A stretch of 64,000 bases of DNA from Ralstonia pickettii. Its GTDB lineage: Bacteria; Pseudomonadota; Gammaproteobacteria; Burkholderiales; Burkholderiaceae. The number at the start of each line of letters is the position of its first letter. Within the stretch, counting starts at the first letter, position 1. The notes beneath the pieces were generated by a model that saw only the letters and a list, made by a program, of their open reading frames with translations, was not told where the DNA came from and did not search any database. Below are positions 10,186-50,118 of the stretch, in pieces. The position numbers were made by a program, and so were the translations under genes. The DNA lies in assembly GCA_050987995.1 (NCBI GenBank), contig CP158804.1:1030412-1094411 (forward strand), read 5' to 3'.

Positions 10186-10196
10186 ACTGCATAGTT

Positions 10197-11234: not shown

Positions 11235-11246
11235 GCGCTGGGGCGC

Positions 11247-13624: not shown

Positions 13625-13796
13625 GGTCCGGGCTCCTCAGGCATGGCTCGGCCGCGCCGTGCCACGCGGGCCCGGCGCGCCCGCCCTTGGACTATAGGAT
13701 GCGTGCCCGCCGGACCTCTGTAGGACGCCCGCGCAGCCGTCATGTAGGACAAACACGCACAGCTGCGCCGCGAACGCCGCCCCGCCGCGGAGGACG

Positions 13797-15386: not shown

Positions 15387-15469
15387 GCCGGCCGCACGCC
15401 ACCATGCCGGGACGGGCACCACGCCCGTCCCGTTCGCCTTGCTTTCCCCTCGCTTCGCCTCACAGAGAC

Positions 15470-16333
15470 ATGACCTCCATCCCCATGCGGCCGATGCTTG
15501 CGGCCGTGTTCTCGATCGGCATGGCCCTTTGCGCCGCCGTGCACGCATCGGTCGTGATCGGCGGCACGCGTGTCATCTACGATGCGCACGATACCGAAGT
15601 CACGATCAAGCTGACCAACGAGGGCAAGAGCCCGGCGCTGACGCAGGTATGGCTCGACACCGGCAATCCGAATGACGATCCCTCGACCATCAGCACGCCG
15701 TTCGATATCGTGCCGCCGCTCGCAAGGATCGACGCCGGCCGGTCGCAGACGCTGCGCATCATCCATACCGGCGCACCGATGCCGGCGGACAAGGAATCGC
15801 TGTTCTGGCTGAACGTGCTGGAAGTCCCGCCCAAGCCCCGGTCCGCCGGCGGCAACGACAGCCAGCTGCAGCTTGCATTCCGGTCCCGCATCAAGCTGTT
15901 CTACCGGCCGCGTGGCCTGGCCGGCGCGCCGGCGGACGCGCCCGCGCAAGTCCGCTGGCGCCTGGCCACCGCCGACGGCGCGCCCGCCATCGAAGCGCAC
16001 AACCCTACGCCCTACCACGTCTCGTTCACCGTGCTGGACCTGCTGGACGGCAAGGCCACCGGGAACACGCCAGCAGCACAGATCAGCGCCGACATGGTGG
16101 CGCCGGGTGAAGCGCGCCGCTTCCCGCTGCCGGCAGGCATGCAGATCCAGGCAGGCACGCGCATGCGCTACCACGCCATCAGCGACTACGGCGGCGACGT
16201 GGACGGACAGGTGAGCGTGGAAGCCGCAAGCTCGCCGGCCGCGCCAGCACCCTCGCCAGCACCCTCGCCGACGCCCACGCGGCAGCGCGAGGCCGGGGGC
16301 AGCCCCGTGGCCGTGGCGGCTCCACTGCCTTGA
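15470..16333 (+). CDS. Periplasmic fimbrial chaperone (PapD-like)
   Basis: MTSIPMRPMLAAVFSIGMALCAAVHA signal peptide. Conserved chaperone motifs (…RVIYDAHDTEVTIKLTN…SLFWLNVLEVPP…) followed by a Pro/Ala/Ser-rich tail. Confidence 0.85.
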   Translation: MTSIPMRPMLAAVFSIGMALCAAVHASVVIGGTRVIYDAHDTEVTIKLTNEGKSPALTQVWLDTGNPNDDPSTISTPFDIVPPLARIDAGRSQTLRIIHTGAPMPADKESLFWLNVLEVPPKPRSAGGNDSQLQLAFRSRIKLFYRPRGLAGAPADAPAQVRWRLATADGAPAIEAHNPTPYHVSFTVLDLLDGKATGNTPAAQISADMVAPGEARRFPLPAGMQIQAGTRMRYHAISDYGGDVDGQVSVEAASSPAAPAPSPAPSPTPTRQREAGGSPVAVAAPLP

Positions 16334-16510
16334 TTCCGGCGCGGCCGCCGTGCCGCCTCGCGGCGGCCCCCTTGCCGGGGCCGCCAGCAGCCATCCGGAG
16401 CGCCCGCACGCAGACGCAGGCGCCCTGACAACGATCCCCATCAACCCTGGAACGGACCGCCAGCCGGCGGCCCCGGGGCGCAGCCTTGCGCCTGCACAAC
16501 GCCCACTGGC

Positions 16511-19180: not shown

Positions 19181-19189
19181 CGCCATCCC

Positions 19190-19240
19190 AATGAAAAAGG
19201 CCCCGGCCTCTGCAAAGAGGCGGGGCCTTCTTCAATGCCG
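19190..19240. terminator. Candidate bidirectional terminator hairpin between the usher and acnB (convergent)
   Basis: aaaaaGGCCCCGGCCTCtgcaaaGAGGCGGGGCCttcttc is a GC-rich inverted repeat flanked by A/T runs. Confidence 0.4.
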
Positions 19241-19280
19241 GCCACCGCATCGCGGCGCCGGCCCGGCAGTGCGACAGTCC

Positions 19281-21872: not shown

Positions 21873-22359
21873 GGGAACCTGCTGAGTAATTAGGTTTAGA
21901 AAATCTCGTTACGTCGCGATTGTAGTCCGAAGCCGACCTCAGGTCAAATGTCTTATATCTTATATAAGAGTAAAAATCAGAAAAGCACGACAGATCAAAG
22001 ACTTGCATCGAACAGGTCATGCAGGCTTGCATAAAGGACTACCCGAGTAGCGTAGTAGGGAATGCCGGAGGGGCACACGATCCCGCGGCAAGGACCTCGC
22101 CCGGAGCGCACCCCACAGGGCCTCCACATCAGGCCCCGAAGATCCCCGAATCGCCCGGAAAGCTACGCCAGCACTCAAGTTCGCCCCGCGCCAAGCGTTA
22201 ACCAGCCTGCAGGCGCGCACCACGAAGCGCCCGCTGGCGTAGCCATGCCTGCCCCCTTTCCGCTCAAACGGCCAAGCTGAAAGGGTTTCCCCCTTTTTTT
22301 CGGCCCTTTGCTGGCCTGCGATTCCGGAAGAATGGCAGGCATTCCGATACAGGCTTCTC

Positions 22360-29167: not shown

Positions 29168-30778
<1,611 letters not shown>

Positions 30779-30915
30779 GTCTATCTGTCTGGATAAATGA
30801 CGCGATAATCGTATCAGAATTTCGTGCGGCCGGGCGACGTACCCATGCACGATTCAGACATAACTTCCTTTTATTTCAAGCACTTAAGCGCTGTAGCCAG
30901 CTATGCGTCACCTGC

Positions 30916-30931
30916 TGGCACGCTCTTCGCA
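30916..30931 (+). promoter_or_regulatory. Sigma54 (-24/-12) promoter divergent from rtcR
   Basis: TGGCACGCTCTTCGCA has GG at 30917-30918 and GC at 30929-30930 (GG-N10-GC spacing), with one mismatch to TTGCA in the -12 element. Predicted TSS is about 30943. A possible IHF-like TTTCAAgcacTTA lies about 25 nt upstream. Confidence 0.55.
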
Positions 30932-31039
30932 ATATCCCTGCAGCCGGATGTCCCTCTGGCCCGCGAGCCAGGGTTCGAAACGCCCTGCTGGTGCGCCGCC
31001 GCCGAACCTGTGTTCGTCGCGACGGCGTATGCCGCCATG

Positions 31040-31205
31040 GACAGATGAAGGCGATTGGGGTGCGCGTGGTGTCTCGCCCGGGTTCGACTCCCGGGGCATC
31101 CCACACCGTTCGGTAGCTCATTGGGTAGAGCAGTCGGCTTCGGCCGACGTGTAGCGGGTTCGAATCCCGTTCGAACACTGTCCTGGTAAGACAGTTCTGT
31201 CGTGA
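31040..31205 (+). ncRNA. tRNA-like non-coding RNA (Y RNA-like / YrlA-type tRNA mimic) in the leader of the RtcR-controlled operon
   Basis: Core module 31107-31178:
- acceptor-like stem CGTTCGG/TCGAACA (6 of 7 pairs)
- D-arm GCTC-ATTGGGTA-GAGC
- the anticodon arm is replaced by a 6-bp hairpin capped with a UUCG tetraloop (GTCGGC-TTCG-GCCGAC)
- 5-nt variable loop
- canonical T-arm GCGGG-TTCGAAT-CCCGT
There is no anticodon and no encoded CCA. Further T-arm-like hairpins carrying GGTTCGA lie at 30968-30987 and 31077-31095. Confidence 0.5.
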
Positions 31206-31427
31206 AAGCAGTACCCGCCGGTGCGGGCAACGGTGGCGAAACGCCGATGCGTGGAGGCACCGAAGCCCGCCGCGCGCCGGGCCGGTCACGGTGCCGCGCG
31301 AACGGCCGGGAAGCCAGAGGGGGCCTTGCAGCAGTCCGCAACCCAACGGCGAACCCGCCCGTCCGCGTCGCGCCGCGATCCGCCCGGCGCGCGTACCCGG
31401 CGGTCATCGAAGAAGAAGGAAAAGAAA

Positions 31428-32573
31428 ATGTGGAAGCGTTATCTGGTCAAAAAGAATGAGCGTGCGCTGCTGCGGCGCGAGGGCGATTTCGTCAAGGTGC
31501 TGGAGCCGGGCGTATTCAAGGCGCTCGACCCTTTCAACCGCCTCGCGGTGGAAGCAGTGCGCATGGACGGCCCGCTGTCCGATACGGCGCTGGGCGACTA
31601 CCTGCGCAAGTCCGAGCCCGACGTGATGTCGCGTCACTTCGTGCAGATGGACCTTGGCGATGACGAAGCGGGCCTGCGTTACGAGGACAGCACGCTCGTG
31701 GAACTGCTGCCGCCCGGCACGCGCCGGCTGTACTGGCGTGGCGTGATCGATCATCGGCTGGAGCGGATCAGCCTGACCGAGGCATCGGCACTGCCGCCGG
31801 CCCTGGTGCTGCGCATGACGCAGCCGACGCTGCGCGCGCGGCCGGTGCAAGGGCTGGCCGGCGTGCTGCTGGCGCAGGTGCCGGCGTACAACGTCGGGGT
31901 GCTCAAGATCGACGGCAAGGTGGACCGCCTCCTCGAACCGGGCGTAATCGGTTTCTGGCGTTACAGCCGCGATGTGTCCGTGGAACTGGTCGACCTGCGC
32001 GTGCAGGCCGTGGAAGTGGCGGGACAGGAGATCCTGACCCGCGACAAGGTCGCGCTGCGGCTGAACCTGGCCGCGACGTGGTGCTACGTGGACGTGCTGC
32101 GCGCATGGTCCACGCTGCAAAAGCCCGCGGAACACCTGTACCGGGAGTTGCAATTCGCGCTGCGCGCGGCAGTAGGCACGCGCACGCTCGATGAACTGCT
32201 CGAGGACAAGCAGGTGATCGATACCACGGTCACGGCGCAGGTGCAAGCGCGGTTGCAAGGGACGGGGCTCGAACTGCGCAGCGTCGGTGTGAAGGACATC
32301 GTGCTGCCGGGAGACATGAAGACGATCCTGGCGCAGGTGGTGGAGGCCGATAAGGCCGCCCAGGCCAACGTGATCCGTCGCCGGGAAGAAACCGCCGCCA
32401 CCCGTTCGCTGCTGAACACGGCCAAGGTGATGGAAGAAAACCCGACCGCGCTGCGGCTGAAGGAGCTCGAGACGCTCGAACGGATCGCGGAGCGGATCGA
32501 CCGGATCTCGGTATTCGGCGGTCTCGACCAGGTGCTGAACGGGCTGGTCAGCATCAAGCCCGGCGCAACCTAG
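31428..32573 (+). CDS. SPFH (band-7 / slipin) domain protein
   Basis: From the ATG at 31428 (MWKRYLVKKNERALLRREGDFVKVLEPG…), with an AGGA RBS. Band-7 core …VALRLNLAATW…GLELRSVGVKDIVLP…, followed by a coiled-coil C-terminus. Confidence 0.75.
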   Translation: MWKRYLVKKNERALLRREGDFVKVLEPGVFKALDPFNRLAVEAVRMDGPLSDTALGDYLRKSEPDVMSRHFVQMDLGDDEAGLRYEDSTLVELLPPGTRRLYWRGVIDHRLERISLTEASALPPALVLRMTQPTLRARPVQGLAGVLLAQVPAYNVGVLKIDGKVDRLLEPGVIGFWRYSRDVSVELVDLRVQAVEVAGQEILTRDKVALRLNLAATWCYVDVLRAWSTLQKPAEHLYRELQFALRAAVGTRTLDELLEDKQVIDTTVTAQVQARLQGTGLELRSVGVKDIVLPGDMKTILAQVVEADKAAQANVIRRREETAATRSLLNTAKVMEENPTALRLKELETLERIAERIDRISVFGGLDQVLNGLVSIKPGAT

Positions 32574-32632
32574 CCAGTGACGGGCGTACCGGTATCGACA
32601 TCGATATCGGTACGCCACTATGAATTCAGGAA

Positions 32633-33862
<1,230 letters not shown>

Positions 33863-35914: not shown

Positions 35915-37618
35915 ATGCTGAGCGGATTCGATGCACTTGTCGAGATGTCGATGGCGGAGTGGAAAATCCCCGGACTGGCACTGGCCGTCATCCGCGACGG
36001 CGAGCCCATCCTGCTACGGGGATACGGCATGCGCGACAGTTCCGCACCAGCGCCCGTGACAACCGCTACGCAGTTCCTGCTGTGCTCGCTCACCAAGTCA
36101 TTCACAGCCGCCGGACTGGGCCTGCTGGTGGATGAGCGCAAGCTTGACTGGACCACGCCCGTGCGCGAGATCATTCCCGGCTTCCGGCTGCACGATGCCG
36201 TCGCCACGGAACGCCTCACGGTGCGCGACCTGCTCTGCCACCATAGCGGCCTGCCGCGCCATGACTGGGTCCACGCGCCGGGCGACCTCGACACGCAGCA
36301 GATGATGGAGCGCCTGCGGCACCTGGCACCAAGCCGCGGCCTGCGCGAGAGCTGGCAGTACCAGAACCTCGCCTACGCGGTAGCGGGCCATGTGGCCGAG
36401 CGCCTGAGCGGACAGCGTTGGGAAGACTTCACGGCGCAACGGCTGCTGCAGCCGCTGGGCTTTACACGCTACAGCTTTTCGACTGAGGCGCTGGCGGCCG
36501 ATCCCGACCATGCGCACCCGCACGCGATGGACGGCGACGAGCGCCTGCGCGCCAGCTGGTCGCCGATCCGCGCGACACCAGCCGGCGGACTCAACGCCTC
36601 GGTGGAAGATCTGGCGAAATGGATGCGCTGCCTGCTGGATGCGGGCAAGGTCGACGGACATCCGCTGCTTTCCCCCACCATCGTGCGAGACATGATGACG
36701 CCGCAGGTCCATGTCTGCCGCGCGGAATTCCAGGAAGTTGGCGACGTGCATTACGGTTTAGGCCTGACGGTCGAGCACTACCGTGGCGACCGCACCGTCT
36801 CGCACTCGGGTAGCTGGCTTGGTTGGGCGACACTGATGACGCTGATGCCGGCACGGCGCCAGGGCATCGCCGTCCTGACCAACCGCGCCCCAAGCGCGGT
36901 GACTGCCTTGCTGACCTATTCCGCTCTGGACCAGGTATGCGGGCATCCGCCCATCGACTGGTTCAGCCGCCTGCGTGCCAGGCGGCACGAAATGCTGGCC
37001 CAGCAGCAGATCGACAAGGCAGCACAGCTGGCACGGCAGCATGCTGGCACCACCCCCAGCCACCCGCTGCCAGACTACGCGGGCACCTATTCCCACCCCG
37101 CCTACGGCCAGATCACCATCGAGACCGACAGCGATTCGCTTGCGTGGCACTGGCGCGGCATGTCAGGCCATCTCGCGCACCGCCACTACGATGTCTTCGT
37201 CACGCCCGAAAAGCCCGCCGAGATCCATCCCGACAATCTCGCCCTCACCTTCCTTTATGACCGTGACGGGACCATCGACCGCATCGCGGCTCCGCTGGAG
37301 CCGCTGGTCGACGATATCGTCTTTCACCGCGTGGCAGCGGGCGACGCAACCACCGCCGCCTTCCGCGCGCGCTGTGTGGGTGAGTACCGGCACAGCGCCC
37401 AGCGTATCGACGTCGAGTCCGATGCGGCCGGCGGGCTGCTGCTGACCATCGCCGGCCAGCCCCGGCGCCGCTTGCGGCCGCTCCACGGCCGGATGTTCGA
37501 GCTCGAGGACCTTCCGCGCATACGGGTCGAGTTTCGAATGCCTGGGCCGGATACGGTGGACGCGCTGGTATTTTCCCAGCCAAATGGCACGTTCCTGGCA
37601 ATGCGGGTCGTGGCGTAG
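35915..37618 (+). CDS. Serine hydrolase (class C beta-lactamase / D-aminopeptidase family, with a C-terminal beta-barrel domain)
   Basis: From the ATG at 35915 (GGGAGA RBS). The SxxK motif is SLTKSF. Length about 567 aa. Confidence 0.8.
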   Translation: MLSGFDALVEMSMAEWKIPGLALAVIRDGEPILLRGYGMRDSSAPAPVTTATQFLLCSLTKSFTAAGLGLLVDERKLDWTTPVREIIPGFRLHDAVATERLTVRDLLCHHSGLPRHDWVHAPGDLDTQQMMERLRHLAPSRGLRESWQYQNLAYAVAGHVAERLSGQRWEDFTAQRLLQPLGFTRYSFSTEALAADPDHAHPHAMDGDERLRASWSPIRATPAGGLNASVEDLAKWMRCLLDAGKVDGHPLLSPTIVRDMMTPQVHVCRAEFQEVGDVHYGLGLTVEHYRGDRTVSHSGSWLGWATLMTLMPARRQGIAVLTNRAPSAVTALLTYSALDQVCGHPPIDWFSRLRARRHEMLAQQQIDKAAQLARQHAGTTPSHPLPDYAGTYSHPAYGQITIETDSDSLAWHWRGMSGHLAHRHYDVFVTPEKPAEIHPDNLALTFLYDRDGTIDRIAAPLEPLVDDIVFHRVAAGDATTAAFRARCVGEYRHSAQRIDVESDAAGGLLLTIAGQPRRRLRPLHGRMFELEDLPRIRVEFRMPGPDTVDALVFSQPNGTFLAMRVVA

Positions 37619-37666
37619 CACGGCACCGCAAACGCTACAATCGGTTTCTTTCAGGTGGGCATATCA

Positions 37667-37753
37667 TGAGCTCTGCACTGCTTGTCATCGACTTCCAGGC
37701 CGGACTGGTCGGCACCGACACGATCGAGTTCAGCGCGCTCGCTCCGACTTAGA
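37667..37753 (+). pseudogene. N-terminal remnant of an isochorismatase-family hydrolase gene (28 codons, then stop)
   Basis: MSSALLVIDFQAGLVGTDTIEFSALAPT* resembles the isochorismatase/cysteine-hydrolase N-terminus (ALLVIDFQ). It lies immediately before the AT-rich junction. Confidence 0.3.
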
Positions 37754-37974
37754 TGCGCAAGCATTGCGCCGGTAGCGCCCGGTTATCCGGGCATGCATGC
37801 GTCGTTATATTTACGCGCACAATACGATTGCCGCTCAAAAATCGCCCAATATCCAAAGAAATCCCTCGCGCTGATCGTCAAGCTTCTCTGGTTCACGAAC
37901 GACTTTTCGCGCCGCGGCTTCCTCCTCTCGCCGGCCACACTGTCCGCGCCCTTTCAACATCCTGCCGAACGGGC

Positions 37975-38160
37975 GCGCGTTCTAGTTTTATTTTTATCTC
38001 TATTTATTAATATCTATATTTATTAAAATCAGAATTAAACCGATGTTAATAAGCGACTAGGGTTAGTACTAGGCATAGTCGATCAATTCATAGACCTATA
38101 TTAAGTCTCGCCGGACCAGCGGTTGCGCACTGGATAAACGACAACCTGTTAAACACAGGC
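37975..38160. other. AT-rich segment (well below local GC), probably the junction of a horizontally acquired island
   Basis: ttttatttttatctctatttattaatatctatatttattaaaatcagaattaaaccgatgttaataagcgactagggttagtactagg… is flanked by ~66% GC DNA. It contains the palindrome TAGTACTA. Confidence 0.5.
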
Positions 38161-38185
38161 GACAGGCAAATCCTGACGATCACGC

Positions 38186-39085
38186 ATGGATGCCCCGACG
38201 AAATTCGATGCTGCCGCGGCCCTTTCGGACCTTATCGGCCCGCGCTTGTCGCGCGACGCGAACGCCTTCCGGCTAAGCGCATCGGGTGAAGTCAGCCAGG
38301 GCGCATCGATGCAACGCCTTGGGCAACTGCTAGCGCTGGCGAGCCGCCATGTCCGGACCGGCGTGGCACTCGATCTCAGCCCGGAAGAACTTCGAGCGCT
38401 AAGCACGGGTGTTCCAGGTTGGGATCCGTCGCATTGGAGCCTGCTGGAATCGCTGCGCGTCGCCTTGCTGCTCGCCTCGCCGGACATGGAAGGCGACGCC
38501 TTCGCCATAGCGCTCGAACATTGCTTTCGTTTCGCGGACCACGGCGAGTCGTGCGCCCTGTATCGCGCGCTGGCACTGCTGCCGGGCGGCGAACGCTTCG
38601 TCTGGCGCGCCGGCGAAGGCTGCCGCAGCAATATGCGGTCCGTATTCGAAGCCATTGCGTGCGATTCGCCGTACCCTGCGAAGCATTTTAGCGACGTCGC
38701 CTGGCACCAGCTCGTAATCAAGGCGGTGTTCATCGACGTGCCGCTCTGGCGCATCGACGGCATCGACCGGCGGCTCTCTCCCGAGCTGGCCCGGATGGCG
38801 CTCGACCTCGCGGACGAACGGCGCAGCGCGGGCCGCAAGGTGCCGCCCCAGCTATGGCTTTGCCTCGGTCCTTACGGTGGCGAGCGCGGACTGCAGGCAC
38901 TGCGCAAGGAACTGGCGGAAGGCGATGCGCAGGGCCAGCGCGGCGCGCTGCTCGCCATCGCCCGGGCCGGTGACGCGTTGAGCGGCGAGCGCCAATGGCT
39001 GCGCACCGCGCTCGACACCCATGCTCGCTTTGTCGAACAAGCCCGCCAGTTACGCTTTACGCAGCATGCGCTTCGCTTTCTCTAG
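38186..39085 (+). CDS. eboA: EboA-like protein (first gene of the ebo cluster)
   Basis: 299-aa conserved hypothetical protein that leads a TatD / DHQS-like / TIM-barrel / phosphodiesterase / UbiA gene set. Confidence 0.6.
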   Translation: MDAPTKFDAAAALSDLIGPRLSRDANAFRLSASGEVSQGASMQRLGQLLALASRHVRTGVALDLSPEELRALSTGVPGWDPSHWSLLESLRVALLLASPDMEGDAFAIALEHCFRFADHGESCALYRALALLPGGERFVWRAGEGCRSNMRSVFEAIACDSPYPAKHFSDVAWHQLVIKAVFIDVPLWRIDGIDRRLSPELARMALDLADERRSAGRKVPPQLWLCLGPYGGERGLQALRKELAEGDAQGQRGALLAIARAGDALSGERQWLRTALDTHARFVEQARQLRFTQHALRFL

Positions 39086-39121
39086 CGACAAGAACAACGA
39101 GAACCACAAAAGGACCCCGCC

Positions 39122-40018
39122 GTGAGATTCTTCGATCCCCACATACATATCAGCTCACGCACCACCGACGACATGGAGGCAATGGCCGCCGCCGGCATCC
39201 GCGCGGTCATCGAGCCGGCGTTCTGGCTGGGCCAGCCGCGCACCAACGTGGGCAGCTTCTTCGACTACTACTCGAGCCTGACCGGCTGGGAGCGCTTTCG
39301 CTGCAGCCAGTTCGGCATCGCGCATTACTGCGCGATCGGGCTCAATTCGAAGGAAGCGAACAACGAGAAGCTGGCGCGCGAAGTCCTCGAGCTGCTGCCG
39401 CAATTCGCGCTGAAAGAAGGTGTCGTCGCCATTGGCGAGATCGGCTACGACGAGATCACTGCCGCGGAGGATTTTGCCTATCGCGCGCAGCTCGATCTGG
39501 CACGCGAGCACGACATGGTGGTGATGGTCCACACGCCCCATCGCGACAAGAAGAACGGCACGCTACGGTCGATTGACGTCGCGCGCGAGCACGGCATCGA
39601 TATGACGAAGCTGGTCATCGACCATAACAATGAGGAGACCGTGCGCGCCGTGCTCGACTCCGGCGCATGGGCCGCCTTTACCATCTACCCGAACACGAAG
39701 ATGGGCTCTGAGCGGATGGTCGAGGTCGTCCGGCAATACGGGCCGGAGCGGATCATCGTCGACAGCTCGGCGGACTGGGGCGTCAGCGACCCGCTGTCGG
39801 TACCGAAGACCGCGCACCTGATGCTCGCGCGCGGCATTCCCACTGCCGATGTCGAAGCGGTCACCTGGGGCAACGCGTTGCAGGCCTACGCGCAGTCGCA
39901 GCAGATCGATGTCGCTGCGCTGGACCAGACCCCGCGGCTCGATCAGCGGCAATTGTTCGCCGACAACTCCGTGCTGCGCGGACAAGCGCCGCGTGTCGAC
40001 GCGCCGGTACCGAACTGA
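39122..40018 (+). CDS. eboB: TatD-family metal-dependent hydrolase (EboB)
   Basis: GTG start at 39122, with an AAGGA RBS. MRFFDPHIHISSRTTDDME… His-motif TIM-barrel hydrolase. Confidence 0.8.
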   Translation: MRFFDPHIHISSRTTDDMEAMAAAGIRAVIEPAFWLGQPRTNVGSFFDYYSSLTGWERFRCSQFGIAHYCAIGLNSKEANNEKLAREVLELLPQFALKEGVVAIGEIGYDEITAAEDFAYRAQLDLAREHDMVVMVHTPHRDKKNGTLRSIDVAREHGIDMTKLVIDHNNEETVRAVLDSGAWAAFTIYPNTKMGSERMVEVVRQYGPERIIVDSSADWGVSDPLSVPKTAHLMLARGIPTADVEAVTWGNALQAYAQSQQIDVAALDQTPRLDQRQLFADNSVLRGQAPRVDAPVPN

Positions 40019-40103
40019 CCCGGCGCTGGTTGTCCTGCCGCTGGCGGCCACGCCCCGCTACCCACCCACGCCATTGCCTCGGTACGCGCCACAGGAGCAC
40101 CTC

Positions 40104-41287
<1,184 letters not shown>

Positions 41288-41291
<4 letters not shown>

Positions 41292-42412
41292 ACCACGACT
41301 ACCCGCTGACCTACTGCACCAACATTCACCCCGGCGATGCGTGGGCCGACGTCCGACGCAATCTGGAGGACCATTCGTTGCAGGTCAAGCGGGCCTGCTC
41401 ACCTGAGCACAGCTTCCCGCTCGGCTTGCGCCTTTCCGCGCCGGCCGCATTCGAACTCGACGGCGCGGAAATCCACCGCTTCGCCAACTGGTGCGAGGCG
41501 CGCGACTGTTACGTGTTGACGCTGAATGGCTTCCCGTATGGCGCGTTCCACGGCACCCGAGTAAAGGAAGCGGTCTATCTGCCTGACTGGCGCGATCCAC
41601 TGCGCGCCGCCTATACGAACCGGCTCGCCGACATCCTCGCACAATGGACGCCCCGCGGCCAGGCCCGTTCGATCTCCACCGTGCCGGTTGCATGCCGTAG
41701 TGGCTTTGCCGCCGAACACTGGACGCAGGTCAGGACGCATCTGCTCCACACCCTGACGCATCTTGCCCGTCTGCACGAGCATGGCGGTCCGCTGATCCGC
41801 CTCGCGCTCGAGCCGGAGCCGTACTGCGTACTGGAGCAGACCCGCGAGGTGGTCGAGTTCTTCGAACGGATGCGGTTCCCCGCGTCGGTTGCCGACTACA
41901 TCGGCCTGTGCTTCGACTGCTGCCACCAGGCAGTCGAGTTCGAGCAGCCGACCGACTGCCTCGCGGAACTGGAACGCGCCGGAATCCGCGTGGTCAAGGT
42001 CCAGGTGTCCTCCGCGCTGCGGGCCCGTGGCAACGCGATTGCGAACCTGCTGGCGTTCGACGAACCAACGTATCTGCATCAGGCCGTGCTGCGCACGCAG
42101 GACGGCGAACTGCTGCGCTTCTCCGATCTGCCGGGGCTGGCGCGCTGGCTCGAACGCGGCGAGCCGGCCGACGAGTGCCGCGTGCACTTTCACGTGCCGA
42201 TCTTTCTCGCAGAACTAGGCGAGGTCGGCACGACGCGCTTCTTCCTCGAGGACTGCCTGCCGCGTCTGGCGCCGGAGACGCCGCTTGAGGTCGAAACCTA
42301 CAGTTTTGGCGTGCTACCGCCGGCACTGCGTCTCGACTCGCCCGGCGCGTCGATCGCACGCGAACTGAACTGGGTCAGGGAGACACTCGATGCAGCGCAC
42401 GGCCGTCATTAA
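41288..42412 (+). CDS. eboE: Xylose-isomerase-like TIM-barrel sugar phosphate isomerase/epimerase (EboE)
   Basis: The GTG start overlaps the eboD stop (GTGA). VNHDYPLTYCTNIHPGD…. Confidence 0.7.
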
Positions 42413-43757
42413 CGTTGTCGGACTGACGAAGAAGCTGCTCGGGCCGCACACGCCGCACCTGTCGGCGCTGAGCAACGACGTCGCGGCAATCGATGCCGTA
42501 ACGCCCGCGCTGACCTGTTCGGCGCAGACGACCTACCTGACTGGCAAGCTTCCGAGCGAGCATGGCATTGTCGGCAACGGCTGGTACTTCCGCGAGCTGG
42601 ACCAGGTGATGCTATGGCGACAAAGCAACCGCCTGGTGGAGGCGCCGCGCATCTGGCATCTCGCGCGTGAGCGCGATCCGCGGTTCACCTGTGCCAACAC
42701 GTTCTGGTGGTACGCGATGGCGACAGACGCGGACATCACGCTGACACCGCGGCCGCTCTATTGCGCGAATGGCCTGAAGCTGCCGGACTTCTACACCCAA
42801 CCGGCGACGTTGCGGGAGCAACTGCGCCAACGACTCGGGCAGTTCCCCTTGTACGATTTCTGGGGGCCGCGCACCAGCATCCGTTCGAGCCGCTGGATCG
42901 CCGACGCGGCGCTCGAGGTCGAGGCGCGATTTGAGCCAACGCTGAACCTGATCTACCTGCCGCATCTCGACTACTGCCTGCAACGCCTCGGCCCGCAAGC
43001 CGATATCTCGACCGACCTGCGCGAGATCGATGCCGTCTGTGGCGACCTGATCGACAAGTTCCGGGAGCGCGGGGTACGCGTTGTCGTGCTCTCCGAATAC
43101 GGGATCGTGCCGGTCAGCAGGCCGGTGCATATCAACCGGGTGTTGCGCGACGCCGGGCTGCTCGCGATCAAACGCGATCTCGGCCGCGACTACCTCGACA
43201 CCGGTGCTTCGCGCGCATTTGCGGTGGCCGACCACCAGGTCGCGCACGTCTACGTCCGCGACCAGCGCGACATCGCCGCGGTCACCCGGCTTTTCGACGA
43301 CGTCGACGGCGTCGGCGAAGTACTCCACGACGCCGGAAAGCACCACTACGGCCTCGCGCATCCGCGCGCCGGCGAGATCGTGCTGCTGGCCGAACCGGAT
43401 AGCTGGTTCACCTACTATTTCTGGGCCGACGACGCTGCCGCGCCCGACTATGCGCGCACCGTCGATATCCACACCAAGCCCGGCTACGATCCGGTCGAGC
43501 TGTTCGTCGATCCGGGCATCCGCTTCCCCGCGCTGAAAGTCGGCGGCATTCTCGCGCGCAAGGCGCTCGGCATGCGCTATACGATGGATGTGATTCCGCT
43601 CGACGCGTCGCTGGTGCGCGGCTCGCACGGCATCCGCACGGCCAGCGACGAGGACGCGCCAGTGCTGATCAGCTCCGAACGCGGTCGCATTCCCGACGAC
43701 AAGCTGGCCGCGACCGAGGTCTGCTCGTTATTGCTCGAGCACGTGTTCGTCCAATGA
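42390..43757 (+). CDS. eboF: Alkaline-phosphatase-superfamily nucleotide pyrophosphatase/phosphodiesterase (EboF)
   Basis: 455 aa. …PALTCSAQTTYLTGKLPSEHGIVGNGWY… matches the type I phosphodiesterase family. Confidence 0.75.
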   Translation: MQRTAVINVVGLTKKLLGPHTPHLSALSNDVAAIDAVTPALTCSAQTTYLTGKLPSEHGIVGNGWYFRELDQVMLWRQSNRLVEAPRIWHLARERDPRFTCANTFWWYAMATDADITLTPRPLYCANGLKLPDFYTQPATLREQLRQRLGQFPLYDFWGPRTSIRSSRWIADAALEVEARFEPTLNLIYLPHLDYCLQRLGPQADISTDLREIDAVCGDLIDKFRERGVRVVVLSEYGIVPVSRPVHINRVLRDAGLLAIKRDLGRDYLDTGASRAFAVADHQVAHVYVRDQRDIAAVTRLFDDVDGVGEVLHDAGKHHYGLAHPRAGEIVLLAEPDSWFTYYFWADDAAAPDYARTVDIHTKPGYDPVELFVDPGIRFPALKVGGILARKALGMRYTMDVIPLDASLVRGSHGIRTASDEDAPVLISSERGRIPDDKLAATEVCSLLLEHVFVQ

Positions 43758-44512
43758 GCACGCTGCCCTTCCGTCCTGACTTCAACGCGGTACTGTCGCT
43801 GTGCCGCGTGAGCAACCTGCCGACTGTCTGGATGAACGTCCTGACCGCGGCCGTGCTCTCCGGCGCGGTATCGAACAGCGCCGGCAACGGGCCGGTTTCC
43901 CACTCCGCCTTGCTGGTCGTGCTGCTCGCGTTCGCATTGTCGTGCTTCTATTGCGGCGGCATGGCGCTGAACGACCTCTGCGACCTCGAGCACGACCGCC
44001 TGCACCAGCGCTACCGGCCGATTCCGGCCGGCCGCATCACGGCTGGCCATGCGCGCGCCGTCACCCTCGCGCTGTTCGCCTGCGCCCTCGCCTGCCTGCT
44101 GCCCGTGCCGCATCGCGCGGGGCTGGTCGCCGGCGTGGTGCTGCTTTTTGTCATCTGGGTCTACGACCACTTTCACAAACGCCACCCGTCGACCGTGTTC
44201 GCCATGGCCGGCGCCCGGCTGCTGGTCTATGTCGTCACCGCGTTCGCGCTGACCGGCGGGATATCCGCCGTGGTCGGAATCGCCGCCCTCGTCCAGGCCG
44301 CATACGTACTGCTGCTGACGGTCGTCGCGCGCCACGAAGGCCATACCGCTGCCGGGCGTTACCGGTGGCCGGTGATCCCGTGGATGCTTGCCGCGATGCC
44401 GCTCCTCGACGGCTTTGTGCTCGCCATGCTGGCACATCCCGCGTGGTTGCTCGCGGGCGTCGTCGGCATGGGACTGACCCGCGCGGGCCAGCGCTACGTG
44501 CGCGGCGACTGA
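43754..44512 (+). CDS. eboC: UbiA-family aromatic prenyltransferase (EboC)
   Basis: NDLCDLEHDRLHQ is the NDxxDxxxD Mg/prenyl-diphosphate motif. Polytopic membrane protein. ATGA overlap with eboF. Confidence 0.85.
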   Translation: MSTLPFRPDFNAVLSLCRVSNLPTVWMNVLTAAVLSGAVSNSAGNGPVSHSALLVVLLAFALSCFYCGGMALNDLCDLEHDRLHQRYRPIPAGRITAGHARAVTLALFACALACLLPVPHRAGLVAGVVLLFVIWVYDHFHKRHPSTVFAMAGARLLVYVVTAFALTGGISAVVGIAALVQAAYVLLLTVVARHEGHTAAGRYRWPVIPWMLAAMPLLDGFVLAMLAHPAWLLAGVVGMGLTRAGQRYVRGD

Positions 44513-44614
44513 CGGATGTAGTCAATCGTGGCCGCTTCCGGCACAGCGGCCCGACGTAGAGCCCAAGCCATGGTGCCGGTTGTGCATGAAGCCTCCAAAC
44601 CAACGAGGAGCACC

Positions 44615-45391
44615 ATGAGTCCATCCGCCCCCACCACCGTCAGCCTTACATCACGCTGGTTCATCCGACCGGGATGCGAACAGGCCGCCGACGCCGCGCT
44701 GCGCCAGCTCGCCGACGACGTCCTGCAGCACGAACCCGATACGCTGGCATACCTGGTCCATACGCCTTATGGCAGCGACCCCCGTCTGCAATCGCTGCCG
44801 CCCGCCGATCCGCTTTCCGTCCTGTTCTTCGAGACGTATCGCGACGCCGACGCTTTCCTGCGCCACGTCAACGGACCGGTGTTCACCGGCTTCGTGCGGC
44901 AGCATGGCGAACTGTTTGTCGCGGCGAACGGCGCACCTTTCACCTTCGTCGAGTTTCTCGAGACGCGCGCGGGTTTCGTGCGGACCGCGACGGCGGCCGC
45001 CTCCCTCGCCTCGCTGCCAGCCGATGCCGTCAACCAGCACCCGAGCGTGATGTTTGAAATCATTGCGAAGGACCAGGCCGTGCTGAAGACCTTCTACTGC
45101 AGCGTCTTTGGCTGGCAGTACCAGACCGGCTCAGCCGGCTTCGCGTACATCCCGTTCCAGGTGCAGACGTTGCCGCTGCTCGGCGGCATCGGCCAGACAG
45201 AGCCGAACACACCCGGCTACGAGCCGGGCAAGAACTTCTATCTTCGCGTTGACGACCTGGAAGCAGCGATCAACCGTGCATTGCAGAACGGCGGCAGCCG
45301 CTATGTCGATCCGGTCAGCGTCGATGGCTACCACTTCGCGATCATCAAGGATCCGGAAGGCAATCCGGTTGGCCTGATCAAGCCGTTCTAA
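44615..45391 (+). CDS. Fusion protein: antibiotic-biosynthesis-monooxygenase (ABM/Dabb) domain + VOC (glyoxalase/bleomycin-resistance fold) domain
   Basis: From the ATG at 44615 (GAGGAG RBS). The N-terminal ~110 aa form a ferredoxin-like ABM fold. The C-terminal …MFEIIAKDQAVLKTFYCSVFGWQ…HFAIIKDPEGNPVGLI is a VOC domain. Confidence 0.65.
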   Translation: MSPSAPTTVSLTSRWFIRPGCEQAADAALRQLADDVLQHEPDTLAYLVHTPYGSDPRLQSLPPADPLSVLFFETYRDADAFLRHVNGPVFTGFVRQHGELFVAANGAPFTFVEFLETRAGFVRTATAAASLASLPADAVNQHPSVMFEIIAKDQAVLKTFYCSVFGWQYQTGSAGFAYIPFQVQTLPLLGGIGQTEPNTPGYEPGKNFYLRVDDLEAAINRALQNGGSRYVDPVSVDGYHFAIIKDPEGNPVGLIKPF

Positions 45392-45434
45392 CGCGCCGCG
45401 GCAACCACGTCGCACCGCCAACAAGGAGGTACAT

Positions 45435-47351
45435 ATGAGCTACCTGAACCCACTGCGGCTGCATTTCGCGGGCCAGTTCCAGGCCAACGTGTCGACGGTC
45501 AACAACGACCCCGGACACTTCGACAACGCTGCGTTCGAACCAAGCTACCAGAAGCTCCAGGGACCGAACATGAATCCGCCCAATGGCTGGTTCAATCCGA
45601 CCGGCGACGCCTCGTGGCGGCTGCTCGGCTGCAAGGTCACGTCCGCGTGGCTGCCGTCGGGTGCCGCCAGTCCGACCGATCCGGTCCTGCAGTACCTGGT
45701 CGCCGACTCGGACGGCCGTGTCTGCGGCAAGATGGTCGATCTCGACAGTGAACAGCAGCTGGTATCCGAAATCTGGGGCTTGCAGGTGCGGATCACCGAT
45801 TCGAAGGGCAACACGCTGCTGCGCGGCAATTTCGACCCGGCGCCGTTCCTGGACATCTGGGACCGCGCGACCGGCCAGACCTCCGGCGATGTGATCGCGG
45901 GCGCGATGTATCAGTCCGTGCTGACCAGCCTGCAATGGGCCGACGTGTCGAACTCACCGTTCCTGGCCGCGCTGCAGGCCAGCGGCGACCGGCTCTCGAT
46001 CAAGTTCAACGTGGACGGCATCAATCTCGACTACACGTCACCGCAGTTCATGTGCGGACGAATTGCCGGCACGATCGGCCCCTCCGCGCCGGGCGAGCCG
46101 AAGAGTATGGTGATCGGCCGGCAGTTCATGACCGCCGCGGCGCAGGGTGGCAACTTCTTCAAGCCGAAAGGCGGCATCAACTTCTTCGCGGCGCAGGTCG
46201 ACAGCGCGTCCAGTTCGATCTTTCTCGACCTGGGCAACGCGCTGAGCACCGGCACCCCCGGCGGCGCACTGAATGACCTCGGCGACCTGACGCTCAGTGT
46301 CGCCACCTCGGGCGGCACGCTCACACTGGGGACCATCCCGTCCGCGGGGCAGAACGGCTACTCGGGCAACACGCCCTGGTACCAGACCACCGCCGGCGTG
46401 GTGCAGTTGCCGCTGACGGCCCAACAGCTCGCCGCGGTGAAAAGTGCACCGCTGACGTTGAGCGGAAACTCGGGCATCACGATCAGCGAATGGGACAGCG
46501 GCGTGTTCGTGCGCGCGGATACGTTCGTCTACCGCGCAAGTCCCGGCGACAAGCTGCAGGTACCCGTCTACGCGATGCAATGGGGCCAGCCGATGGTCGA
46601 GGCAACGCTGAGTGTGGTGCCCGATTCATCGCAACTTCAGCCGAGCAATATGATCCATCCGCACGATGTGCCCCCGGTCGCGACACCGCTGTCCGCGTTG
46701 AGCTTCGTCGATAATACGCAGCGGCCGCAGAAGGTCACCCCCCTTTCCGACGAATTCAACGGCACGCTGGTGACGGGCCAGAACGGCGTCGCGATGCTGT
46801 CGCTCGTTACCAGCGACCCGGGCACGCCGCGCTATTTCAACCACGGCAAGGAGTATGGCCTCGACGGCCAGGTGTACGGCATTCGCATCGGTTTTGCGGA
46901 TACGGGGACCTATAGCGGGCCGGAGAACCAGTGGAACTTCATCAGCATCCTGCTATGGAGCGACTTCAGCCCCGCGCAGCCGGTCACGTGGACGTCGGTG
47001 CAACCGATCTTCCAGCAATACGCGAACCTGTATCCGGTGATGGCGCGGTTTCTCGACATGGCCGACTACAAGCAGGTGGTGGCCAATGCATCGCTGCTGT
47101 CGCTCGCATTCGGCCTCGATCCGTCGGACCCGAACTCGATGCCGGTAACACGCGACCTGTCGCCCGCCAAGCGTGCCGCGATCCAGTCGTTCCTCGCCAA
47201 TCCCCAATTCGGCACTGGCGCGCCGCCTCCCGTTGCGCGCGCGCAGGCCGCCGCGCCCGCGTCGGATGCGATGCGTCCCGCGGCGCAAGGCGGCAAGGCG
47301 GCGGCAAGCGCACGCCGGCTGGTACTGCGCGGAATCTCGCGCACCCTTTGA
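45435..47351 (+). CDS. Large conserved hypothetical protein (638 aa), co-oriented with the ebo genes
   Basis: MSYLNPLRLHFAGQFQANVSTVNNDPGHFDNAAF… No family assignment could be made by eye. An AGGAGG RBS lies upstream. Confidence 0.6.
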   Translation: MSYLNPLRLHFAGQFQANVSTVNNDPGHFDNAAFEPSYQKLQGPNMNPPNGWFNPTGDASWRLLGCKVTSAWLPSGAASPTDPVLQYLVADSDGRVCGKMVDLDSEQQLVSEIWGLQVRITDSKGNTLLRGNFDPAPFLDIWDRATGQTSGDVIAGAMYQSVLTSLQWADVSNSPFLAALQASGDRLSIKFNVDGINLDYTSPQFMCGRIAGTIGPSAPGEPKSMVIGRQFMTAAAQGGNFFKPKGGINFFAAQVDSASSSIFLDLGNALSTGTPGGALNDLGDLTLSVATSGGTLTLGTIPSAGQNGYSGNTPWYQTTAGVVQLPLTAQQLAAVKSAPLTLSGNSGITISEWDSGVFVRADTFVYRASPGDKLQVPVYAMQWGQPMVEATLSVVPDSSQLQPSNMIHPHDVPPVATPLSALSFVDNTQRPQKVTPLSDEFNGTLVTGQNGVAMLSLVTSDPGTPRYFNHGKEYGLDGQVYGIRIGFADTGTYSGPENQWNFISILLWSDFSPAQPVTWTSVQPIFQQYANLYPVMARFLDMADYKQVVANASLLSLAFGLDPSDPNSMPVTRDLSPAKRAAIQSFLANPQFGTGAPPPVARAQAAAPASDAMRPAAQGGKAAASARRLVLRGISRTL

Positions 47352-47375
47352 TCACCCTCTTCGGAGATATCCAAC

Positions 47376-48428
47376 ATGATTCGCCTACAACGCTCCACGC
47401 TGAAAGGGCTGAGGTCCGATCAGCCGTCGCTGCCGGCCATGTACGCGGTGCTGAACCAGGCCATCGAACTCGAGCACGCGACCATTCCGCTCTACCTTTA
47501 CGCGATGTACTCGCTCGATCCGACCAGGAACAAGGCCATTTCGGACATCCTGTTTTCCGTGGTGATGGAAGAGATGCTGCATATGACGCTGGCGTCGAAC
47601 GTGCTGAACGCGCTTGGCGGAACGCCCGCCATCGGTGGGCAGTACTTCGTCCCGACCTACCCGGGTCCGCTGCCGGGCGGCGTCGAGCATGGCCTGACCT
47701 GCAATCTCGCGCCATTCTCGCCGGCCCAGCTCGACACCTTCCTCGATATCGAGCAGCCGGAAGATCCGCTCAACTTTCCGACCGCCCAGGCGTTCGCGCT
47801 GGACACCTCGATCACGATCGGCGAATTCTACGATGCCATCTCGACGGCAATCGGCGTGCTCGGCGATGGTGCGTTCGTCAACCCGCCGCGCAACCAGGTC
47901 GGCCCCAACCTGATGCAGGAAGCCGTGATCGTGCACAACGTGGCGACCGCGCAGCAGGCGATCCGCACGATCGTCGAGCAGGGCGAGGGGACGTCGACTT
48001 CCCCTGAGGAGGTGGTCGGAGATGGCTTCGCACACTACTACCGCTTCATGCAGATCAAGAACGGCAGGACGCTGGTGAAGAACCCGTCCGGCAATCCGGC
48101 GTATTCATATTCGGGCGAACCGATTAGCTTCGATCCAAGCGGCGTGTATGCGGTGCCGACCAATCCGAAGCTCGCGAACTATCCTCCCGGCTCGGCTCAG
48201 CGGCTTGCGTCCAACAACTTCAACTACACCTATACAAGCTTGCTTTCCGCCCTGAACACGCTGTTCAACGGCACCGCCACCTCCGCTCAGCTGAACATCG
48301 CGATCGGACTGATGATGTCGCTGAAGGGGCAGGCGAAGGCGATGATGTCGGGCATTCCGAACCCGGCCGTCCTGACCGGACCGAGCTTCGAGTACCAGCC
48401 GGTCGATCCGGGCAGCGCCGCTGCCTGA
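47376..48428 (+). CDS. Ferritin-like domain protein
   Basis: …AIELEHATIPLYLYAMYSL…EEMLHMTLASNVLNALGG… has the di-iron-carboxylate-like helix pattern of the ferritin-like superfamily. It lies 25 nt after the 638-aa gene. Confidence 0.65.
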   Translation: MIRLQRSTLKGLRSDQPSLPAMYAVLNQAIELEHATIPLYLYAMYSLDPTRNKAISDILFSVVMEEMLHMTLASNVLNALGGTPAIGGQYFVPTYPGPLPGGVEHGLTCNLAPFSPAQLDTFLDIEQPEDPLNFPTAQAFALDTSITIGEFYDAISTAIGVLGDGAFVNPPRNQVGPNLMQEAVIVHNVATAQQAIRTIVEQGEGTSTSPEEVVGDGFAHYYRFMQIKNGRTLVKNPSGNPAYSYSGEPISFDPSGVYAVPTNPKLANYPPGSAQRLASNNFNYTYTSLLSALNTLFNGTATSAQLNIAIGLMMSLKGQAKAMMSGIPNPAVLTGPSFEYQPVDPGSAAA

Positions 48429-49048
48429 GCGCGCGCGCGTCCCGCGGGGGCCCCGAGGATTGAAGCGTGCCGGCAAGGCGCGCTACAATCCGTACGCCTC
48501 TGTTCGCAGCTGATCCCGCTTGCCATACTGGCAAACACCCGATCCCGCCGCACCCACCAGTGCAACAACGCCGCCGCCACGTGCAGCAGCGCCACCGCCA
48601 GGAAGGAATAGGCCAGGAATGTGTGCGCGCTGCGCAGGTACGCAAACGCCACCACATCGGGATTCATCAGCGGCGGAAGCGCCCAGGCGCCGAGCATCGT
48701 TACCGGATACCCGCCCGCCGACAGCATCGCCCAGCCGACCAATGGCTGCAGGCCCATCAAGACGTACAGCGCCAGGTGGCTGGCGTGCGCGGCGCCGCGC
48801 TGCCAGCCCGGCAGGTCAGCCGGCGGCGGCGGCGCGCCCCGCACCAGGCGCGTGACCAGCCGCACCGCCCACAACGCCAGCAGCAACGCGCCCAGCGGCC
48901 GGTGGATCGCGACCAGCGTCAGGTGCAGGTCCGACACGGTGGCCACCATGCCGATGCCGATAAACAGCATGACGAAGATGCCGGCGGCCATGGTCCAGTG
49001 CAGCCATCGCTCCAGGCCGCTGTACCGGTTGGGGGATGTGCTTGTCAT
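48287..49048 (-). CDS. Cytochrome b561 family protein
   Basis: …RYSGLERWLHWTMAAGIFVMLFIGIGM… has the His-containing 4-TM b561 core. The ORF is about 70 aa longer than typical. It overlaps the ferritin-like gene by about 140 nt on the opposite strand. Confidence 0.7.
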   Translation of the reverse strand: MTSTSPNRYSGLERWLHWTMAAGIFVMLFIGIGMVATVSDLHLTLVAIHRPLGALLLALWAVRLVTRLVRGAPPPPADLPGWQRGAAHASHLALYVLMGLQPLVGWAMLSAGGYPVTMLGAWALPPLMNPDVVAFAYLRSAHTFLAYSFLAVALLHVAAALLHWWVRRDRVFASMASGISCEQRRTDCSAPCRHASILGAPAGRARAQAAALPGSTGWYSKLGPVRTAGFGMPDIIAFACPFSDIISPIAMFS

Positions 49049-50118
49049 TGTCCGGCTCCCGCGTGAATTTCGTGCTGCGCGTTCTCACTGCTGCGGCGGC
49101 GATATGACTCGGCATAGGCCGATGAGCGCGCCGCCAGCAGCGGATCGTCGGACGGACTGAGGCCGCGCGGCAGGATGGTGGGGTCGTAGTTGATATCGCG
49201 GCAGTTGCCGTCCTGCTGCGCGCTTTGCCGCTCCAGCACCAGCGTGCCGGCATCGATCTGCTGCCGCCCGGCGGGCCAGGCTTGCGTGGCATCGGCGGTG
49301 GGATCGCCGGGCTGCGCCACGGTGACCACCAGGTGCCAGCGCAGCGGGCCTTGTGCAAGCCGGCTGGCGAGGTCGCGCGCGAGGAAATCGGGTTGCGCGC
49401 CGGCCGCTGGTGCGGGACCGCCCTGCGCATCAGGCTCGAGCCGCCAGCGGATCGCGCGCTGCACGCCCGCGCCATCGGTGGCCACGAAGGCGTTGATGCC
49501 GTAGTACGCCGTGGTGGCGAAGCTGCCAGTCAGCGGATGGTTCTTGACCCATTGCCGGAACGGCTGCGTCTCCGGGTACTTGCTGAAGAATGCCGCCAGC
49601 CGCTGCGGATCGGGCTTGCCGGTGGCGAGATCGGGCCGCGCTGCCACCAGTTGCTCATAGAACTGCTGCGGCGTGCGCACCCCGAACACCGGCGTGGAGT
49701 TCATGGCGGTGCGCCATTGCTCGCCGTTTGCCAGCCGGAATTCCAGCGCCAGGCTGCGCACCGGGGCGGCGGCATCGGGCGCGGCCGGGTTGCCGCCGGG
49801 GATGGCCAGGCGGCCGGTCACCGGCGTGCGCACCGGCCCGAACACCGCCGCGCGCGAAACCGCCAGCGCCTTGCCATTGCCTTCGAAGTAGCCTTCGACG
49901 CAGACGCCCTTGGCATGGTTGCGGCGATATCCGGCGTGGATGCCGGCGTTGGCCTCGAAGGCATCGATGATCCTCGGCGCCGACAGACGCGCCGGCGTCA
50001 GCCAGCCGGCTGTCCAGGCAAAGCCGGCTCCGATCGTCCCGATCACCGCGGCAATGGCGGCCAGCCTGCATGGCAGGCAGGCGGGCCGGCCGGGCGGCGC
50101 TGCTTGGTGTCGTGTCAT
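49045..50118 (-). CDS. Catalase-related peroxidase (catalase-like haem protein, SrpA-type)
   Basis: …RRNHAKGVCVEGYFEGNG… is the catalase-core haem pocket, in a 357-aa protein with an N-terminal signal/TM segment. ATGA overlap with the b561 gene. Confidence 0.7.
   Translation of the reverse strand: MTRHQAAPPGRPACLPCRLAAIAAVIGTIGAGFAWTAGWLTPARLSAPRIIDAFEANAGIHAGYRRNHAKGVCVEGYFEGNGKALAVSRAAVFGPVRTPVTGRLAIPGGNPAAPDAAAPVRSLALEFRLANGEQWRTAMNSTPVFGVRTPQQFYEQLVAARPDLATGKPDPQRLAAFFSKYPETQPFRQWVKNHPLTGSFATTAYYGINAFVATDGAGVQRAIRWRLEPDAQGGPAPAAGAQPDFLARDLASRLAQGPLRWHLVVTVAQPGDPTADATQAWPAGRQQIDAGTLVLERQSAQQDGNCRDINYDPTILPRGLSPSDDPLLAARSSAYAESYRRRSSENAQHEIHAGAGQ

Follow-up and report, generated by a model that had tools for sequence, protein, structure and literature searches.

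The 64,000-bp window analysed here, i.e. the whole stretch of DNA under study, comes from Ralstonia pickettii (contig CP158804.1, positions 1,030,412 to 1,094,411 of the forward strand, assembly GCA_050987995.1), and all coordinates below are window positions unless another locus is named. Nine co-oriented genes are packed tightly on its + strand within 38186-48428: six genes of an ebo cluster, then a gene for an ABM monooxygenase::VOC fusion, and finally two genes that encode the N- and C-terminal halves of a split protein related to the VioB/RebD/StaD oxidases. An initial annotation, made from the sequence alone, had read the locus as a complete ebo cluster, followed on the same strand by three more genes, inside a probable genomic island. 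The cluster itself is upheld by hidden Markov model (HMM) searches, which back EboA and EboE with their own models and the rest by family. The three extra genes had been treated as separate enzymes, which no longer fits two of them, since these are halves of one split protein.

The ebo genes and the limits of the block

The first gene, eboA (38186-39085, 299 aa), matches the NF035938 EboA_domain model at 154.8 bits (cut-off 50), and scores 183.5 bits with the stricter subfamily model NF035937, under its cut-off of 320; the homologues in relatives L161 and L162 carry PF28008 EboA. Next comes eboB (39122-40018, 298 aa), for a TatD-family hydrolase (PF01026, 54.3 bits) that shares 55-97% identity with its TatD counterparts in other ebo clusters, followed by eboD (40104-41291, 395 aa), whose product is a DHQS-like sugar-phosphate cyclase (NF004852, 527.7 bits with a cut-off of 333; also PF01761 and PF24621). 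The xylose-isomerase-like TIM barrel protein of eboE (41288-42412, 374 aa) reaches 414 bits with NF035939 TIM_EboE (cut-off 250), and eboF (42390-43757, 455 aa) belongs to the type I phosphodiesterase / nucleotide pyrophosphatase family (Phosphodiest PF01663, 195.1 bits). The libraries hold no dedicated models for EboB, EboD or EboF, so these assignments combine family level and synteny.

The sixth gene (43754-44512) encodes a 252-aa UbiA prenyltransferase, equated with EboC in the initial annotation. Its family (PF01040, 69.9 bits), its kept NDxxDxxxD motif (NDLCDLEHD) and its position speak for that identity, but the EboC model NF035940 gives it only 76 bits with a cut-off of 250; SCO3242_trans gives 81 bits, under a cut-off of 260. 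The low EboC score is explained by the form that EboC takes in this group: the whole ABDEFC clade carries a short version of 235-258 aa, and alignment shows ~55 aa deleted relative to the 292-300 aa EboC, at a rough estimate two transmembrane helices. The deletion is clade-wide, the Asp-rich motif is intact, and the short form does not come from a frameshift. The protein is the positional orthologue of EboC, and the short form now defines a clade.

With all six gene families of the ebo/EDB cluster represented, EboC by a candidate short form, and with the genes co-oriented and tightly packed, genes 1-6 can be classed on their sequences as an ABDEFC-type ebo cluster, a known kind in a known arrangement. 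The position of the UbiA gene at the end had been thought unusual, but Yurchenko 2016 (PMC5133447) already gave ABDEFC as an alternative arrangement, tabulated for Paraburkholderia sacchari. What sets this cluster apart, besides the short EboC under its HMM cut-off, is that three extra genes continue the operon-like block: the ABM-VOC gene (44615-45391, 258 aa), the gene for the N-terminal half of the split VioB-like protein (45435-47351, 638 aa) and that for its C-terminal half, a ferritin-like four-helix-bundle subunit (47376-48428, 350 aa).

Neighbouring genes overlap by 4 bp at eboD/eboE (where the GTG start of eboE overlaps the eboD stop) and at eboF/eboC, and by 23 bp at eboE/eboF; the remaining gaps are 24-102 bp, with 24 bp between the 638-aa gene and the ferritin-like gene. 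Starts were set by gene calls in relatives and by ribosome-binding sites, of which a plausible one lies at each of the nine starts. Three likely starts fall later than those of the longest open reading frames (ORFs): 40104 for EboD, backed by a 395-aa gene call in L161; 41288 for EboE; and 44615 for ABM-VOC, backed by gene calls in L161 and L162 and a GAGGAG ribosome-binding site. Ahead of eboA lies a very AT-rich leader (37972-38185), with GC dropping to 16% at 38000-38049, so the AT-rich junction of the initial annotation is real; it belongs to the block itself. The leader, conserved solely among the three Cupriavidus-type copies, is probably the promoter region of eboA. A promoter and terminator scan inside the block gave nothing beyond chance, and an Rfam scan of 37000-49500, leader included, gave no match.

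BLASTN of the window with Burkholderiaceae bacterium 16 and Cupriavidus sp. amp6 returned one alignment each, spanning 37972-48436 at 89% identity and 38010-48434 at 86%, with unrelated flanks. The shared block is 10.46 kb long and holds the nine genes on one strand; at its right end (48429-48436) homology stops at 48436 (L001) or 48434 (L002). The same nine-gene order is found in Burkholderia sp. MSMB1589WGS, Paraburkholderia pallida and Pseudoduganella flava in different surroundings, the flanks of L161 and L162 differ, and metagenome contig L081, which starts inside eboD, carries the genes from there to the ferritin-like one in unchanged order. The comparison across related genomes suggested along with the initial annotation thus finds the three extra genes co-conserved with ebo, in the same order, in Burkholderiales relatives and one metagenome contig. 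Among relatives with the nine-gene block, the 638-aa protein is only 53-68% identical; Cupriavidus necator database entries are 99% identical to it and 100% identical to the ferritin-like protein. The same nine genes in differing surroundings make this a discrete, transferable unit, and judging from these alignments the block at 37972-48436 has been inherited and transferred as one among Burkholderiales.

As a genomic island, then, the block has exact ends and unrelated flanks, but none of the other usual marks. The 'visibly different codon usage' reported at first is not borne out: G+C content at third codon positions (GC3) is 0.76-0.88 for the nine genes and 0.81-0.90 for most flanking ORFs checked (two of seven have 0.66 and 0.73). 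The composition-based argument was dropped for this reason, the AT-rich leader (130 bp) being the sole deviation. A repeat search at the borders found no flanking direct or inverted repeats, and there is no integrase, transposase or tRNA target there; the sole tRNA-like element near the block is at 31107, 7 kb off. A search for the empty site among other C. necator contigs, by means of the exact flanking protein, returned the same strain only.

The split oxidase pair and its family

VioB, RebD and StaD, i.e. iminophenyl-pyruvate dimer synthase / chromopyrrolic acid synthase, are hemoprotein oxidases of ~1000-1200 aa that join two aryl-pyruvate imine units during the synthesis of violacein and rebeccamycin. 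The 638-aa protein has no match in Pfam and NCBIfam even at E <= 10, and its profile finds noise only among PDB sequences. The ferritin-like protein matches PF12902 (199 bits), as the initial annotation had it, and also the NCBIfam VioB model at model positions 634-846; its score with the VioB equivalog TIGR04492 is 17.3 bits, far under the cut-off of 1250. Single-chain fusions of the two halves, with 900-1000 aa, occur in Polyangium, Chloroflexota, Solirubrobacteraceae, Symploca and Amycolatopsis, and among the top 150 cluster representatives ~18 have lengths of 872-1068 aa. In these natural fusions the segment before PF12902 (fusion residues 504-619) matches VioB model positions 517-638 (E 1.5e-11), and the first 27 residues also match model positions 1-27.

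For a direct comparison, RebD/StaD genes were taken from plasmids of Pseudonocardia (pBCI2-2, where the gene sits in a rebeccamycin-type cluster), Streptomyces clavuligerus and Nocardiopsis flavescens. A VioB sequence was used solely to fetch these records, and no conclusion rests on it. With hhalign, residues 1-600 of the 638-aa family align to RebD 1-658 (probability 96.5%, E 9.8e-10, 553 columns), and residues 9-344 of the ferritin-like family to RebD 661-1039 (probability 99%, E 8.1e-18), while reversed-sequence controls give E 0.45-0.6. This collinear profile-profile homology shows that the two genes encode one VioB/RebD/StaD homologue split into an N-terminal and a C-terminal half. Conserved through RebD/StaD are E33, E66, H69, E126, E204 and H220 in the bundle, and S2, R8, H10 and the M569-P570..R573-D574-L575 segment in the N half. 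The likeness extends to the N-terminal MSxxxxPRLHFxG motif, the beta-rich body, the helical 'MPxxRDL' segment and the PF12902 bundle with its C-terminal extension, and the fused relatives of the pair are of similar size (870-1070 aa). The differences are that identity is only about 21-28%, that there are two genes here (638 + 350 aa), and that the partner of the pair is a VOC or ABM-VOC protein, with no adjacent flavin adenine dinucleotide (FAD) amino-acid oxidase, RebC/VioE or P450.

Unfused N-half proteins end, after a disordered linker, in a conserved tail, GGKAAxxARRLVL(Q), which the natural fusions lack. In this C-terminal region of the 638-aa protein (window 47236-47351) G619, G620, K621, A624, R627 and R628 of the tail are invariant, and the tail may serve to dock the ferritin-like half. 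An encapsulin cargo signal was also considered for this C-terminus, and dropped, since there is no shell gene close by and the motif is a different one.

In AlphaFold2 (AF2) models the N half is rich in beta-sandwich and ends in a helical part (predicted local distance difference test score, pLDDT, 77.9), and the C half folds as a four-helix bundle (pLDDT 87). Structural neighbours of both halves are generic or uncharacterised. The best is PDB 3hl1, the ferritin-like protein CC_0557 of Caulobacter from structural genomics, which is the best match of the 350-aa protein in both sequence (hmmsearch E 1.2e-18) and fold (Foldseek E 4.6e-11). Bacterioferritin and Dps come after 3hl1, so that the fold, together with the conserved E/ExxH/E/E/H residue set, could suit a protein that serves with its partner in metal handling or oxidative-stress protection (Fe/Mn oxidation or storage) instead of biosynthesis; neighbours elsewhere, among them TonB receptors, MntP and, in Mycetohabitans, TMEM165/GDT1, could be read the same way. 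The matches to ferritin and Dps cages are weak, however (Foldseek E > 0.2), the protein is obligately paired with, or fused to, a 600-aa beta-rich half, and the usual partner is an ABM/VOC protein. Above all, homology reaches beyond the four-helix bundle to span a whole biosynthetic oxidase, and a metal-storage role is for that reason very improbable.

The family is large. More than 1,100 close homologues of the 638-aa protein at ~60% identity come from many phyla, and an exhaustive search gave 1,356 50%-cluster representatives from at least eight phyla, with E <= 1e-30 for 470. Locus statistics were compiled for 79 species-level genome loci of the three-gene module, with ebo genes counted within 10 kb. 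The ferritin-like gene is directly 3' of the 638-aa gene in 77 of the 79, often with a 4-bp overlap, and an ABM-VOC or VOC-only gene is directly 5' of it in 38, the VOC domain standing alone in a third of loci. In the window both domains, of the ABM cofactor-free monooxygenases and the VOC (glyoxalase / extradiol dioxygenase) superfamily, are joined in one 258-aa protein, with PF03992 at 32.3 bits and Glyoxalase_6 (PF18029) at 29.2 bits; both pass the Pfam cut-offs, which bears out the fusion called in the initial annotation. A literature search found no description of the ABM-VOC fusion and its fixed place upstream of the split VioB-like pair, nor any of the module as a whole in the searchable literature; on PF12902 it turned up a single paper of tangential interest. 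The recognition of two 'unknowns' as one split VioB/RebD/StaD-type oxidase in a large mobile module is new; it turns 'unknown proteins' into a testable candidate oxidase and reveals that VioB-like proteins, both split and fused, form a large family in soil bacteria.

Genes that recur beside the module encode a TonB-dependent receptor (in 21 loci), a VTT/DedA protein (in 19) and an unknown secreted protein (in 12), and further DJ-1/PfpI, a pyrroloquinoline quinone (PQQ) propeller protein and MntP. Six loci (L007, L019, L028, L031, L063, L068) have a second, divergent 638-aa paralogue upstream of the main pair, with the tail GGKTAxILQY...; it is often near genes for the TonB receptor, VTT and the unknown secreted protein.

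Linkage to ebo and possible function

The module is found next to ebo at four types of junction: after eboC (the block described here), after eboB (Massilia aquatica), before eboD (a Mycetohabitans plasmid) and, in fused form, between eboD and eboE (the cyanobacterium Symploca). In a rough neighbour-joining tree of the 638-aa protein, the ebo-linked copies fall into three separate clades. Six of the 79 module loci have ebo within 10 kb, where ~0.01 would be expected by chance, a rough estimate that uses the ~2.7% of genomes with ebo given by a May 2026 preprint (10.64898/2026.05.21.724671). On these counts the linkage is non-random, with the module recruited next to ebo several times.

Some of the linked loci are peculiar in other ways: (i) The ebo region of Symploca sp. 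SIO1C2 (L077, 675-20626) is interleaved with four PF12902 proteins of 1234, 521, 948 and 326 aa, the fused form being that of 948 aa; the region also has a VTT/DedA gene and encodes a 762-aa protein with a match to the N part of the VioB model, and there is no eboA, eboB or eboC within 10 kb. (ii) The Mycetohabitans endofungorum plasmid NZ_CP132742 (L160; coordinates 3562-6623 and 10065-22007) has, in its module-plus-ebo block, an unknown secreted protein between eboD and eboE and a TMEM165/GDT1 transporter after eboF. A LodA/GoxA cysteine tryptophylquinone (CTQ)-dependent oxidase and a LodB-like flavoprotein are encoded 4.4 kb upstream of that block; PF12902 genes were seen to adjoin fungal lodA-like genes in a 2015 paper. 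(iii) Massilia aquatica (L010, L055) has two copies of the pair in one genome, one by a rearranged ebo cluster in the order F(-)-D-E-C-A-B-trio, the other with no ebo nearby.

The product of ebo was called undefined in the initial annotation, which is outdated. A review gives EboD as a mannose-6-phosphate cyclase, an activity reported in 2024, and the May 2026 preprint ties the core ebo genes to thallusin, made from a cyclitol, L-aspartate and farnesyl diphosphate. In the preprint's account EboC farnesylates hydroxyquinaldic acids, and no enzyme is assigned to the final step, the oxidative rearrangement of saccharoquinoline. Research on ebo is currently active.

Following this literature, ebo genes 1-6 would build a prenylated aromatic metabolite from a cyclitol, giving a thallusin-type product. 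Genes 7-9, the ABM-VOC protein and the split VioB-like oxidase, would form one oxidative module, most likely co-transcribed with ebo, the two oxidase halves presumably associating physically. The module would oxidise an aromatic intermediate or product of the ebo enzymes, by C-C coupling, hydroxylation or ring opening, and the result would be a lineage-specific derivative of the ebo product. Such tailoring is plausible, and we hold with about even confidence that in this block an oxidative module has been recruited to an ABDEFC-type ebo pathway and modifies an aromatic intermediate or product of that pathway in this lineage. The proposal of the initial annotation that the extra genes are the 'enzymes that make or tailor ebo cargo' is, for this lineage, a reasonable hypothesis.

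Several observations weigh against this coupling. The 102-bp gap before the ABM-VOC gene leaves room for a separate promoter. Searches (tblastn, E <= 1e-5) with RebO, StaO, RebC and RebP found none in the window or in 85 module loci; no RebO/VioA-type oxidase is near the module, so the canonical substrate supply of the family is missing. Core ebo suffices for thallusin in other phyla that have no such genes, according to the same preprint. The module has no ebo within 10 kb in 73 of its 79 loci and occurs in only one of 80 metagenomic ebo loci, and the ABDEFC clusters L083, L084, L086 and L088 have no module despite enough downstream sequence. Elsewhere the module seems to form a unit with the genes for a TonB-dependent receptor and a VTT/DedA protein, which hints at a non-ebo role.

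With the module mostly found apart from ebo, and ebo mostly apart from the module (79 of 80 loci), the module is autonomous, and it could be functionally independent even here, acting on a common or imported aromatic substrate and merely travelling with ebo in the Burkholderiales block. Pseudomonas cichorii, where the three-gene trio is free-standing, would fit this, as would Ramlibacter, where the pair follows a TonB-dependent receptor gene and a VTT/DedA gene on one strand, a setting in keeping with the frequency of these two neighbours (21 and 19 loci). We nevertheless consider such independence, the main rival reading, possible but rather unlikely, given that the ebo linkage recurs at four junctions, in three clades and two phyla; that the fused gene of Symploca sits between eboD and eboE, accompanied by three more PF12902 genes; and that four genera keep the nine-gene order at only 56-68% protein identity. 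The extra genes are no accessories specific to ebo; the order of the block is the same in Cupriavidus, Burkholderia, Paraburkholderia and Pseudoduganella, and 73 module loci lack ebo.

Homology of the pair to RebD, StaD and VioB over its whole length also raises the question of indole chemistry. The Pseudomonas EDB cluster consists of six ebo homologues and three genes of unknown function, and Escherichia coli carrying it makes tryptophol, indole derivatives and novel indole dimers (PMC12904256, a 2026 review); cyanobacterial ebo is tied to scytonemin, an indole-derived dimer (Klicki 2018, PMC6282210). The split enzyme might accordingly act on tryptophan-derived indole-3-pyruvate or its imine, as its characterised relatives do, give indole monomers and dimers, and be the direct cause of the Pseudomonas EDB indole chemistry. 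Some of the non-ebo EDB ORFs have signal peptides, however (Klicki 2018), and inspection of the N-termini found none in the three proteins here, which is why we regard this possibility as improbable. A signal-peptide protein instead follows a metagenome ABDEFC cluster. Moreover, the close Pseudomonas homologues are from the P. cichorii, P. capsici and P. serbiensis lineage only, with no Pseudomonas fluorescens protein among them; a plasmid search placed eboE on no Pseudomonas plasmid. There is no tryptophan oxidase, and the VioB equivalog score is 17 bits with a cut-off of 1250. The family has no tryptophan oxidase partner, and its chemistry is thus probably broader than bisindole synthesis.

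A bolder variant of the coupling would make the split VioB-like oxidase and ABM-VOC the missing oxidative enzyme of ebo-type pathways, performing the rearrangement of saccharoquinoline to a thallusin-type product or the coupling of a prenylated quinoline, or else the direct maker of the EDB indole dimers. We think this unlikely; if true, it would explain why ebo occurs beside aryl-pyruvate dimer chemistry in scytonemin, in the EDB indoles and at this locus.

The signal-peptide protein mentioned above is encoded after eboC in a module-free ABDEFC cluster (L083, 9239-10006). It has 255 aa, a signal-peptide or lipoprotein-like N-terminus and no Pfam match, and may exemplify the extra genes to which accounts of Pseudomonas EDB refer.

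Sequences flanking the block

The genes flanking the block encode a beta-lactamase-family hydrolase and a cytochrome b561. To the left, the 'truncated isochorismatase-like gene' of the initial annotation is a 28-codon ORF (37666-37752, MSSALLVIDFQ...) with no Pfam match, and amounts to a resemblance only. The right boundary falls within a long - strand ORF (48287-49048) whose cytochrome b561 domain is complete before the boundary; the ORF extends 150 bp into the block, so that its C-terminal tail is encoded by island DNA. The assembly annotation has no call for this cytochrome b561 gene, which together with a catalase-related gene (357 aa) occupies 48287-50118 on the - strand, directly right of the block.

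Farther to the left lies an RNA-repair locus (29168-33862). It comprises rtcR (29168-30850, - strand; PF06956 and a sigma-54 domain), the tRNA-like element (31107-31178), a gene for an SPFH/Band 7 protein (31221-32573) and rtcB (32633-33862). The tRNA-like element scores 45.2 bits with the Rfam tRNA model, and ARAGORN assigns it no anticodon; placed between rtcR and rtcB, it may be a regulatory or Y-RNA-type RNA.

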